Part shown: positions 26,921 through 29,210 of the stretch, piece after piece
Layout of the letters: every line of letters starts with the position of its first letter
Numbering within the stretch: position 1 is the stretch's first letter
DNA from: Gammaproteobacteria bacterium
GTDB lineage: Bacteria > Pseudomonadota > Gammaproteobacteria > SURF-13
Reading direction: 5' to 3'
Length of the DNA: 64,000 bases
Assembly (NCBI GenBank): GCA_030680605.1
Contig: JAUXUQ010000002.1
Coordinates: 257,536 to 321,535 of the forward strand
Notes under the pieces: generated by a model
Databases searched by the model: none
Seen by the model: the letters and a program-made list of their open reading frames with translations, nothing else
Told to the model about the DNA's origin: nothing
Translations under genes and position numbers: made by a program

Positions 26921-27370
26921 CTACACCTTTCTCTTTTTCTCCTGCGCCTGCTCGCGTGAGATGAGCTTGGCTAGCGCCGACAGTTCCTCGGCCAGCAGCT
27001 CGATAATATCGTCCAGTGCGAGTATGCCGACCAGACCACCGCTGGCATTCACTACCGGCAGTCTGCGTACGCCCTTCATGCGCATGAGCTGAATGGTTTC
27101 GAAGACGCCATCCGTGTCACGGGCGCTGGCGAGCTCGAAGCTCATGATATCGCCCACGCTGACCTTGTCGAGATCAACATTTTTTGCCACTACCTCAACG
27201 ACGATGTCACGATCGGTCAGGATCCCGACCGGCACTCTCTGGGCGTCTTTCTCGTCCACCACCAGCACATTGCCGACATGATGCTGACGCATGAGTTGCG
27301 CGGCCTCGCGCACGGAGTCTTCCCGGCGCACGAATACCACTGCACGACTGCAGAGTTCACCGATGGGCAT
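26921..27370 (-). CDS. CBS-domain pair protein
   Basis: Two CBS motifs (VGILTDRDIV, GLVGILALDDII). 149 aa. Confidence 0.8.
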   Translation of the reverse strand: MPIGELCSRAVVFVRREDSVREAAQLMRQHHVGNVLVVDEKDAQRVPVGILTDRDIVVEVVAKNVDLDKVSVGDIMSFELASARDTDGVFETIQLMRMKGVRRLPVVNASGGLVGILALDDIIELLAEELSALAKLISREQAQEKKRKV

Positions 27371-27499
27371 AATGCCTCCTGTTGCGTAGGATTACCCTGC
27401 AGATCATGAGGGCAGACAGGCAGGGCTGCAAGGCCGCTGCTAAAATTACGGGCGCGACAAAGCAGCAGGGTGCAGGTAACAAAGGTAGGGCTTGCTGAA

Positions 27500-27645
27500 A
27501 AATGGCGTCCCCAAGGGGATTACTCGCGCCATCCATGGCGCTCGCCCTTCGGGCCAGCGTCGCTTCACGACGCTGTTCCGCGCACGCTCCCGGCGTGCGC
27601 AGGTCGAACCTTCGGTTCTCATCCCCTTGGGGAAAGCAGTACACA
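27500..27645 (+). ncRNA. Candidate structured RNA or tRNA-Glu-derived element. A 13-bp long-range helix (TCCCCAAGGGGAT/ATCCCCTTGGGGA) encloses five hairpins, two of them capped by C(UUCG)G tetraloops on the + strand. Starts with a 21-nt duplicate of the tRNA-Glu 3' end.
   Basis: Hairpins read directly: GCGCCA..TGGCGC; GCC-cTTCGg-GC; CAGCGTCG-cttca-CGACGCTG; GCGCACGC-tcccg-GCGTGCGC; GAACC-TTCG-GGTTC. AATGGCGTCCCCAAGGGGATT at 27500-27520 equals 27689-27709. A bidirectional terminator follows. Confidence 0.35.
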
Positions 27646-27647
27646 AA

Positions 27648-27688
27648 AAAGCGGGGCGCCTGAAAGTAGGCGCCCCGCTTTATTTGTT
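27648..27688. terminator. Bidirectional rho-independent terminator (GCGGGGCGCC-tgaaagta-GGCGCCCCGC flanked by A-run/T-run)
   Basis: 10-bp GC stem with U-runs on both strands. Terminates the minus-strand tRNA-Ala/tRNA-Glu unit and potentially the plus-strand structured element. Confidence 0.75.
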
Positions 27689-27690
27689 AA

Positions 27691-27766
27691 TGGCGTCCCC
27701 AAGGGGATTCGAACCCCTGTCGCCGCCGTGAAAGGGCAGTGTCCTAGGCCTCTAGACGATGGGGAC
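27691..27766 (-). tRNA. tRNA-Glu (anticodon TTC), CCA encoded
   Basis: Reverse complement GTCCCCATCGTCTAGAGGCCTAGGACACTGCCCTTTCACGGCGGCGACAGGGGTTCGAATCCCCTTGGGGACGCCA. Near-identical to E. coli tRNA-Glu. Confidence 0.95.
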
Positions 27767-27800
27767 TGATAATGATGTGTGAACCTGTCGTGTAGCAACG

Positions 27801-27876
<76 letters not shown>

Positions 27877-27953
27877 GAAATCAAGGCGCTATTCTAGGTG
27901 GCGGGGTGGGCAGCGTCAAGAAATTGCGGGAAAAGCTGCCGGGTGTGCGCTGC

Positions 27954-29210
27954 TCACATGTTTTTAATCACCGCGTCACCAAACCCTGAGGTGCTGACCA
28001 GCGTGGCATCAGGCATCAACCGGGCGAGATCGGCGGTCACGGTTTTGGCGGCGATGGCCCCCGACACGCCTTTAATGACCAGGTCAGCGGCCTCTTTCCA
28101 TCCCAGATGGCGCAGCATCATCTCGGCGGAGAGGATGATCGAGGCCGGGTTGAGCTGGTTCTTGCCGGCGTACTTCGGCGCCGTGCCATGGGTGGCCTCG
28201 AACATGGCGACGGCATCGGATAGATTCGCGCCCGGTGCCATGCCAATGCCGCCGACCTGTGCAGCCAGCGCATCGGAGATGTAGTCGCCGTTGAGGTTGA
28301 GTGTGGCGATTACGCTGAAATCTTCCGGGCGCAGCAGTATCTCCTGTAAAAAGGCGTCCGCAATCACGTCCTTGATGATGATTTCTTTATCAGTGTGCGG
28401 ATTTTTCATTCGGCACCACGGCCCTGCATCTATCTGCGATGCGCCGAACTCACGCTGGGCGAGTGCGTAGCCCCAGTTGCGGAAGCCGCCCTCAGTGAAC
28501 TTCATGATGTTGCCCTTGTGCACCAGCGTCACCGAGTCGCGATGGTTGTCGATGGCATACTGGATCGCCTTGCGCACCAGCCGCTCCGTGCCCTCACGCG
28601 ACACCGGCTTGATGCCGATGCCGGAGCTTTCCGGGAAGCGGATTTTCTTCACGCCCATCTGATGTTGCAGAAAGTCGATGACTTTTTTTACCTCCGGCGT
28701 GCCCGCCGCCCATTCGATACCGGCGTAGATGTCTTCCGAATTTTCGCGGAAGATCACCATGTCTGTTTTCTCCGGCTGTTTCAGCGGGCTGGGTGTGCCG
28801 GTGTAGTAGCGCACCGGGCGCAGGCAAACATACAAGTCCAGTTCCTGACGCAACGTGACGTTGAGCGAACGCATGCCGCCGCCGACGGGTGTCGTGAGCG
28901 GCCCCTTGATGGAGACCACATAGTCGCGTAGCGCGCGTAGCGTTTCCTCGGGTAGCCAGGTGTCACCACCGTACAGCTTTACCGCCTTTTCACCCGCATA
29001 TACCTCCATCCAGACGATGCGGCGGCGGTTGGCATAGACCTTGGTCACGGCGGCATCGACCACGTGGCGCATTACGGGGGTGATATCCATTCCGATGCCA
29101 TCGCCCTCAATGAACGGAATGATCGGACGCTCAGGCGTTTGCAGGCTGTAGTCAGCGTTGACGTGGATGCGCTCACCTTCGGAAGGGACAATGATATGCG
29201 TGTCAGCCAT
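27954..29210 (-). CDS. icd: NADP-dependent isocitrate dehydrogenase
   Basis: 418 aa, homodimeric Icd motifs ([14 protein letters not shown], phosphorylation-loop region). Confidence 0.95.

Follow-up and report, generated by a model that had tools for sequence, protein, structure and literature searches.

The question raised by this locus is what kind of element lies in the non-coding DNA 3' of a tRNA-Glu gene, where the end of that gene is found a second time, and on which strand the element is read. The window, i.e. the whole stretch of 64,000 nucleotides that was analysed, comes from an uncultured gammaproteobacterial MAG. By a 100% match of its PolX protein, its source is labelled Gammaproteobacteria bacterium, and not betaproteobacterial as assumed in a first-pass annotation of the sequence; the contig is present in run SRR13727517 as well. 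The locus contains the following features, given in their order on the minus strand.

27891 to 27919, minus strand: candidate sigma-70-like promoter of the tRNA-Ala/tRNA-Glu operon (TTGACG, 17-nt spacer, TAGAAT; 10 of 12 consensus positions).
27801 to 27876, minus strand: tRNA-Ala(ggc), 62.7 bits.
27691 to 27766, minus strand: tRNA-Glu(ttc), 57.6 bits, the host tRNA with the duplicated 3' end.
27689 to 27709, minus strand: copy 1 of the direct repeat, the last 19 nt of tRNA-Glu (AAUCCCCUUGGGGACGCCA) plus UU.
27648 to 27681, bidirectional in form: intrinsic-terminator-like hairpin between tRNA-Glu and the element, 14-15 pairs (10 G-C), -25.4 kcal/mol.
27503 to 27632, minus strand: RtT-like element proper, 130 nt, five hairpins closed by helix P1, with the end ...GACGCCA.
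27501 to 27521, minus strand: copy 2 of the direct repeat, the 3' arm of P1 and the unpaired ...ACGCCA end.

On the minus strand tRNA-Ala is followed by tRNA-Glu, the terminator-like hairpin and the element, which starts 58 nt past tRNA-Glu on the same strand. The tRNA-operon site was the only promoter-like site found in a scan of positions 27300-28000, and its motif was also present 5' of tRNA-Ala in L128 and L135, two relatives that are described below. The element is surrounded by housekeeping genes (icd, a CBS-domain gene and PolX), and no recombinase or integrase gene was found among its immediate neighbours. A 95-aa ORF spanning the element on the minus strand (27357-27644) was treated as spurious.

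The 21-mer AATGGCGTCCCCAAGGGGATT occurred exactly twice, at 27501-27521 and 27689-27709, while no such repeat was expected by chance (0 of 100 shuffles). The two copies, which consist of 19 nt of tRNA-Glu and TT, were identical at 21 of 21 positions. They lie 188 nt apart from start to start, with 167 nt of non-coding DNA in between. The nearby copy of the tRNA-Glu 3' end noted in the first-pass annotation was therefore exact, and the strong bidirectional terminator reported there corresponded to the hairpin at 27648-27681. On the minus strand this hairpin is followed by UUUUUUGUGU.

The element itself consists of the following parts, again given on the minus strand.

27621 to 27633, minus strand: 5' arm of P1 (UCCCCAAGGGGAU), antisense of the T-stem and acceptor 3' strand of tRNA-Glu.
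27606 to 27618, minus strand: hairpin P2, GAACC-GAA-GGUUC; helix 100% paired and invariant in an alignment of 10 sequences.
27578 to 27602, minus strand: hairpin P3 with the conserved loop CGGGA (family motif GCCGGGAGC); 7 of 8 pairs changed on both sides.
27555 to 27575, minus strand: hairpin P4, 9 bp with a GAA loop and the conserved linker GAAC on its 5' side; 9 of 9 pairs changed on both sides.
27544 to 27554, minus strand: hairpin P5, GCCC-GAA-GGGC, with the near-invariant motif CCCGAAGGG; one of the plus-strand 'UUCG' loops.
27526 to 27541, minus strand: hairpin P6 with the loop UGGA; 4 of 6 pairs changed on both sides.

The long-range helix P1 (27508-27520 with 27621-27633) comprises 13 bp, and all 13 positions were complementary. 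The minimum free energy fold of positions 27495-27645 showed five hairpins inside this closing helix on either strand, in agreement with the 13-bp helix around five GC-rich hairpins that had been described from the sequence. The fold energies were -85.0 kcal/mol for the minus strand (z -7.87) and -82.4 kcal/mol for the plus strand (z -7.89), and none of 200 shuffled sequences folded as well. As both strands folded equally well, the fold energy cannot choose between them.

Read on the minus strand, the element is composed of the antisense 5' arm, GAGAACC, a T-loop-like GGUUCGA into which the 3' strand of P2 runs on, the hairpins P3, P4, P5 and P6, GAGU and finally the tRNA copy. The stems of P3, P4 and P6 vary, while their loops are conserved. 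In the antisense 5' half the T-loop complement AUUCGAA is altered to AUGAGAA; in some family members GGAUUUGAACC is kept. Hairpin P6 is flanked by GA...GA dinucleotides, and a conserved GAGUA lies 3' of it; a tandem G-A motif has been reported for RtT (PMC7657543). The sequence of tRNA-Glu is taken up again at AAUCC and continues to CCA. The two arms pair over 12-13 bp and leave the ...GCCA tail free, so that P1 corresponds to a tRNA acceptor/T-arm minihelix in its length and in the geometry of its end. With the tRNA-like domain of tmRNA and with minihelices the element shares a helix of about 12-13 bp, an unpaired NCCA and a genuine tRNA 3' sequence. Unlike in those structures, the partner strand in RtT is an antisense copy that pairs continuously, and there is no intact T-arm.

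The Rfam scan that had been suggested in the first-pass annotation proved to be the decisive test. When positions 27350-27800 were scanned permissively, RtT (RF00391) was the sole meaningful non-tRNA match. It extended over the whole model length on the minus strand (27503-27643) and scored 39.7 bits (E 2.5e-6), which does not reach the gathering score of 45 for RF00391. The blocks GGAUGAGAAC, AGGUUCGA, GGCCCGAAGGGCGAG and CGAGUAAUCC were common to the element and the RtT consensus in this match. Two further covariance models were built. Model R1, derived from a curated alignment of 10 sequences of non-enteric relatives, gave 121.9 bits for the element. It also recovered four RtT copies from E. 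coli K-12 with 45-51 bits (E 5e-10 to 2e-8). Model R2, a leave-one-out model of non-enteric relatives only, from which the window was excluded, matched the element in the 64-kb window with 112.4 bits (E 7e-27) on the minus strand only, and no second match was obtained. As R1 finds the E. coli copies and the RtT model finds the element, homology is supported in both directions.

The score of the element was compared with those of other copies. No match at the gathering score was obtained for the clear relatives L003, L005, L010, L042, L046, L085, L110 and L120, while the Lys-type copies (52-98 bits), some Gln-type copies and the Arg-type copy passed the Rfam threshold. Since many non-enteric relatives miss this threshold, the sub-threshold score of the element is typical of divergent members. 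The following features of RtT members were present: a position next to a tRNA and in its orientation, a 3' copy including CCA, a closing helix, conserved blocks and matches of the models in both directions. Judged from its sequence, the element is thus very probably a divergent, tRNA-Glu-associated trailer element of the RtT family that is read on the minus strand. While the RtT family is already known, a sub-threshold member of the tRNA-Glu type is new. Two suggestions of the first-pass annotation held up at this point: that the segment is not random intergenic DNA and that it is a structured, tRNA-derived RNA-like element.

RtT is a 178-bp repeat of the E. coli tyrT-tyrV locus, where it is present in 3.14 tandem units; a tandem arrangement is common but not universal. 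The four RtT copies of the E. coli K-12 tyrTV locus scored 133-137 bits, each ended in the last 19 nt of tRNA-Tyr, and one of them is annotated as the sRNA rttR. The element of the window resembles E. coli RtT in its same-strand site behind a tRNA, in the 3' copy of about 19 nt with CCA, in the 5' arm that pairs with this copy, and in the core blocks GGAUGAGAAC, AAGGUUCGA, CCCGAAGGGCGAG and GAGUAAUCC. It differs in its host tRNA (Glu instead of Tyr), in being a single copy and not a tandem array, in a compact P2 that lacks the enteric CUUCGAC insertion, in the P3 loop GCCGGGAGC, which is typical of non-enteric members, and in the strong terminator between tRNA and element.

A scan of species-representative genomes with the core pattern yielded at least 120 stretches. 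The matches listed came from Enterobacterales and a wide range of other Gammaproteobacteria, among them Sedimenticola, Thioalkalivibrio, Ectothiorhodospiraceae, Idiomarina, Salinisphaera, Granulosicoccaceae and Lysobacteraceae. In about 150 relatives the core lay 20-60 nt 3' of a tRNA on the same strand (Tyr, Gln, Lys, Arg, Ser or Glu). In the stretches listed, the tRNAs were called with ARAGORN. The pattern match began 40-85 nt past the tRNA, with a spacer of about 20-60 nt to the 5' arm, among the matches listed. The last 19 nt of the element agreed with the 3' end of the neighbouring tRNA at 19 of 19 positions in most of the listed cases, and the anticodon types following this rule among them were Tyr, Gln(ttg or ctg), Lys, Arg(ccg) and Ser(gga or cga). 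Across the family the 5' arm covaried with the identity of the tRNA. As it alters in step with the tRNA, its pairing with the 3' copy is kept.

Other Glu-type copies were searched for in metagenomes. Nothing was found there with a pattern containing the exact AAGGTTCG...CCCGAAGGG...TAATCCCCT, while a relaxed Glu-specific pattern led to L124-L127, of which only L124, L125 and L127 were Glu-type copies. In L124 the same tRNA-Ala(ggc)/tRNA-Glu(ttc) pair was present, and in L125 the element lay 3' of tRNA-Glu(ctc). Compared with the window, these Glu-type relatives showed compensatory changes in P3, P4 and P6, while the loops GCCGGGAGC, GAAG and GGAU were conserved. The elements associated with Gln, Lys, Arg and Ser tRNAs share the architecture and the 3'-copy rule, and some of them also have a terminator; unlike the Glu-type element of the window, several of them pass the Rfam threshold. 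To the same comparison belong the Pasteurellaceae elements Arrc20 and Arrc21; two sRNAs of this group were seen on Northern blots in Actinobacillus pleuropneumoniae (PMC4986893).

The covariation test with homologous loci, which had also been proposed in the first-pass annotation, gave compensatory changes in the stems P1, P3, P4 and P6. In the curated 10-sequence alignment 93% of the cells of the six-helix structure were paired, compared with 31-44% in slid controls. Twenty-three pairs were altered on both sides, and the observed values were reached by none of 500 shuffles. Applied to the fetched loci, model R1 gave 155 and 42 matches, including array copies missed by the pattern. The 144 distinct sequences were paired in 88% of the cells (slid controls, 34-46%), and 34 of 44 pairs were altered on both sides; this larger alignment leans toward structure because it was fitted to the model. 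With MAFFT and RNAalifold on 29 diverse sequences P3 and P4 were missed, because these stems were misaligned, and the curated and model-based alignments were used instead. The compensatory changes in four stems, together with the conserved loops, argue for selection on the folded strand.

The history of the element was examined by comparison with relatives of the window. Two relatives of the MAG are GCA_947085325.1 and GCA_027624315.1. The closest relative found was L128 (GCA_947085325.1), with identities of 92% for PolX, 94% for icd and 90% for the CBS-domain protein. Its gene order is that of the window (transaldolase, icd, tRNA-Ala, tRNA-Glu, CBS, PolX), and the element is absent. The 133-nt trailer of its tRNA-Glu was colinear with the 132 nt that lie 3' of the CCA of the element (99 of 133 matches). 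It scored 136 against this post-element sequence (shuffles, 43 +/- 8) and 46 against the sequence following tRNA-Glu in the window. From this colinearity it follows that the window differs by exactly 188 bp, comprising the terminator and the element and bounded by the 21-nt repeat. The gap in a MAFFT alignment of window and L128 was ambiguous, and its placement was settled by separate global alignments with the shuffle control. In L135 (icd 90%) the same promoter, tRNA-Ala and a tRNA-Glu with an identical 3' end were present and the element was absent, while the downstream DNA was rearranged. The terminator and the element thus form a discrete cassette of 188 bp that is missing from two close relatives.

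L128 and L135 were the only informative outgroups with the same gene order. No tRNA was found 5' of the CBS gene in L129 and L132, and neither the CBS gene nor the tRNA in L131; L130, L133 and L134 end near CBS or PolX, L136 ends just past icd, and L137 represents a different neighbourhood. One gain would be more parsimonious than two losses, a direction that is drawn from two relatives, one of them (L135) rearranged. The empty sites are explained just as well if the cassette was lost through slippage between the direct repeats.

Such a pair of filled and empty sites is also what would be expected if the 188 bp were a selfish, non-autonomous cassette spreading among tRNA genes, by a tRNA-targeting integrase acting in trans or by recombination through the tRNA-derived flanks, with the RNA being incidental. 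This explanation, which partly overlaps with the assignment to RtT, is rather unlikely, although several observations agree with it. The filled/empty site is clean, both relatives are empty, and the 21-nt repeat starts in the T-loop (AATCC...), as at the sites of T-loop-class integrases. The cassette brings its own terminator behind the restored tRNA end, like integrative elements do. A near-identical P3 sequence (AAAATCGCCGGGAGCGATTTT) is joined to Gln, Ser, Tyr and Glu tRNAs in different genomes, and tandem RtT arrays are present in many genomes. In addition, strains of Erwinia pyrifoliae are reported to differ by an RtT insertion or replacement (PMC7542023).

Against a purely selfish cassette stands, however, that the 64-kb window contains a single copy and no tandem array, as is the case for many family members, and that no RtT-like copy was found there 3' of tRNA-Asn or tRNA-Arg. 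The neighbours are housekeeping genes without a recombinase among them. In a viral-contig collection (described as about 2.9 million contigs) the core pattern was found in only one stretch, which resembled the enteric tyrT region; the core is therefore not typically phage-borne. The compensatory changes in four stems and the conserved loops also speak against an incidental RNA. Moreover, the 5' arm must fit each tRNA, which simple cut-and-paste would not supply, and the empty sites are accounted for equally well by slippage. The miniature insertion targeting the tRNA 3' end, as one possibility in the first-pass annotation was worded, stood insofar as the 188-bp site is empty in L128 and L135, while the element is not a classical MITE. 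It shares with MITEs and REP-like repeats the small size, the lack of coding capacity, strong folding, inverted-repeat ends and a short flanking direct repeat. Unlike in these repeats, the arms follow the host tRNA, and the position is always behind a tRNA. A MITE or REP-type repeat was rejected, as the copy search proposed for it gave one copy in the 64 kb searched and the arms vary with the tRNA.

The second alternative concerns the strand. According to it, a plus-strand sRNA of about 150-190 nt would run from near 27450-27500 to the terminator, with two cUUCGg tetraloops as caps and with a 5' arm that is antisense to the acceptor and T arm of tRNA-Glu. In its favour, both strands fold equally well, the terminator has a bidirectional form, and the two plus-strand C(UUCG)G motifs reported in the first-pass annotation were located at 27547-27552 and 27610-27615. 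Of the possible -10 region proposed there, the TAAAAT was found at 27441-27446, but no plus-strand promoter-like site was detected in 27300-28000, and TAAAAT was not conserved in L128. The Rfam RtT model as well as R1 and R2 matched the minus (tRNA-sense) strand only. Wherever a tRNA fell in the fetched stretch, the family members were co-oriented with it and had the sense ...NCCA end, and for E. coli the reported product is an RNA of the sense strand. The internal stems P2-P4 and P6 contained about 59 G-U and about 17 A-C cells on the tRNA-sense strand; over all pairs the numbers were 183 and 136, and as the alignment was fitted to the sense-strand model this test is moderately decisive. The UUCG reading of P2 is not conserved, because the P2 loop, which represents one of the two plus-strand 'UUCG' loops, varies among the relatives; it was not kept in the Glu-type copies L124 and L127. 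On these comparative grounds the element is assigned to the tRNA-sense (minus) strand, and a plus-strand sRNA antisense to tRNA-Glu is highly improbable.

The third alternative, which is scarcely probable, is a relic, either a decayed second tRNA-Glu gene or a pair of att sites left by a deleted island or prophage in tRNA-Glu. A duplicated tRNA 3' end 3' of an intact tRNA is indeed a classic integration scar, and the T-loop-like GGUUCGA and pieces of antisense T-arm are present. However, no tRNA model matched 27503-27643, and only the last 21 nt are tRNA-sense, so that a decayed tRNA-Glu gene, as considered in the first-pass annotation, does not account for the segment. Unlike a random deletion remnant, the 110-nt core is found again, with compensatory changes, next to six types of tRNA in many genera, and it is essentially absent from viral contigs. 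With the scars of tRNA-targeting integrative elements and with cis-mobilizable elements the cassette shares a repeat starting in the T-loop, a supplied terminator and the occurrence of filled and empty sites. It differs in its length of only 188 bp, in a 5' arm complementary to the tRNA end and in a conserved folded core that is common to several tRNA types.

Three further candidates were rejected. A tRNA gene or pseudogene was discarded, as neither ARAGORN nor Rfam gave a tRNA call on 27501-27650 at E values up to 10. For an att-site scar or a phage origin no integrase was found nearby, and the core was present in one viral contig, which was enteric tyrT-like. A hammerhead ribozyme, suggested by a GAUGAG-stem-GA likeness, gave no Rfam hammerhead match at E values up to 10, and by inspection the residues at the core positions C3, U4 and A14 differ.

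How the element would give rise to an RNA can be outlined by analogy with RtT. It would be part of those transcripts of the highly expressed tRNA operon in which the terminator is read through, and it would mimic the acceptor/T-arm helix of tRNA-Glu. The tRNA 3'-maturation machinery would then trim it to CCA; such trimming is expected, since the element ends in the 3' end of a tRNA and a minihelix-like stem closes this end. The product may be a stable RNA of about 130-190 nt, in line with what is reported for rtT RNA in E. coli. In the account of Bosl and Kersten (1991) given by other papers, rtT RNA is set free from the tyrT transcript and is tied to the stringent response; the E. coli literature connects it with the response to amino-acid starvation. 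For A. pleuropneumoniae, a Northern-blot signal was reported for RtT homologues adjoining tRNA genes (PMC4986893). Because a strong terminator stands between tRNA-Glu and the element, co-transcription depends on read-through. Co-transcription is thus seriously called into question by the terminator 5' of the element, a layout found in only a minority of family members.

A terminator between tRNA and element was found at only seven of the loci surveyed, including L004, L018, L061, L120, L124 and L125, while most members have none. In L004, L018, L061, L120 and L124 the terminator was also inside the duplicated stretch. A duplicated terminator of this kind would be the expected outcome of unequal recombination acting on a unit composed of 3' end, trailer, arm and core. 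As tRNA sequence flanks the cassette on both sides, it could be copied into, or deleted from, any gene for the same tRNA by homologous recombination or slippage.

With regard to its movement it may tentatively be proposed that RtT-like elements are portable cassettes specific for tRNA 3' ends, with a folded core and, in some lineages, their own terminator. It is a similarly speculative part of this proposal that the sense and antisense copies of the tRNA 3' third enable moves between tRNA genes and between genomes. The copy at tRNA-Glu would then be a recent acquisition, because the two close relatives are empty. If this proposal were true, the elements would represent small non-autonomous mobile elements of a kind not yet described, and the tRNA end would serve both as homing site and as RNA-processing signal.

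For annotation, the finding means that a segment open to misreading as a new sRNA, a MITE or a pseudo-tRNA can be of the RtT type and score just under the Rfam threshold. The reach of RtT is widened to tRNA-Glu and to an uncultured gammaproteobacterial lineage, and one rule applied to Tyr, Gln, Lys, Arg, Ser and Glu in the survey, namely that the element repeats the neighbouring tRNA at its 3' end and carries the antisense of this copy in its 5' arm. The most useful feature of the element is the occurrence of filled and empty sites in close relatives, which provides a natural indel pair for RtT. It is predicted that the terminator of the cassette, which stands between the tRNA operon and the CBS-domain and PolX genes, should alter the read-through transcription of these genes.

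In some genomes the RtT core was housed in a tRNA-like gene copy, within its T-loop, at the following fetched loci:
L062, 2059-2556, minus strand, tRNA-like copy with RtT core in the T-loop
L083, about 2795-2935, plus strand, likewise
L069, about 3800-3947, plus strand, likewise
L116, about 1418-1554, minus strand, likewise
The genomes behind these loci were those of Salmonella, Yersinia pestis and two MAGs. In Salmonella, three tRNA-Tyr-like units stood in tandem, their anticodon being GCA and their 3' end decayed. Y. pestis contained one tRNA-Lys-like copy, and in the two MAGs the tRNA-Lys-like copies still ended in an intact ...CCCACCA. A deletion between the GGTTCGA of the tRNA and the element's own AAGGTTCGA would explain the arrangement most simply.

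RtT-like arrays of 3-4 copies were also present in non-enteric genomes, for example:
L078, 902-1962, RtT-like array
L003, 3477-4041, RtT-like array
The loci listed as arrays were L003, L004, L078, L009 and L117, the E. coli counterpart being the tyrT-tyrV region (L001). Serratia contained numerous Lys-type copies alternating with tRNA-Lys genes. On these observations together, tandem amplification is not peculiar to tyrT.

Tyr copies of the enteric type were found in assemblies labelled Firmicutes or Pseudomonas:
L021, assembly labelled Vagococcus sp.
L027, assembly labelled Paenibacillus camelliae, contig of 426 bp
L023, assembly labelled Pseudomonas lundensis
The small size of the P. camelliae contig suggests contamination. 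The match in Ekhidna sp. (L013), lacking both the tRNA end and the arm, looks like a chance pattern match.

Every RtT copy of E. coli tyrT-tyrV included an antisense copy of the 3' third of tRNA-Tyr, so that reads derived from RtT RNA in the sense orientation might pass for antisense tRNA-Tyr, a point raised in connection with part of a preprint (bioRxiv 10.1101/2024.11.26.625507).

In the window, an arginine-rich 95-aa ORF with a GTG start (27357-27644, minus strand) crossed the RtT-like element in the tRNA sense. It is reminiscent of the protamine-like tpr ORF, which sits inside the E. coli RtT repeat, and is probably a mere by-product of the G+C-rich hairpins.

Elsewhere in the window, ARAGORN and Rfam both called a tRNA-Arg gene:
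5561-5656, plus strand, tRNA-Arg(tct), 96 nt
Its variable arm was long (GGGGTGTGTTAGTAGCACACCCC), a type-II-like form that is unusual for tRNA-Arg, and its 3' end (...CCCGCCGCTA) did not encode CCA. AT-rich DNA followed, and the gene may be part of an island or phage.

In the element-free relative L135, the sequence downstream of tRNA-Glu was unlike that of the window and contained an ORF:
L135, 2717-3268, plus strand, 183-aa ORF, MARPLRIEFAGALYHVTARGN...
Judged by eye, its putative product is similar to an IS200/REP-associated tyrosine transposase. In this lineage, rearrangements may be concentrated at the 3' flank of tRNA-Glu, making it a hot spot.
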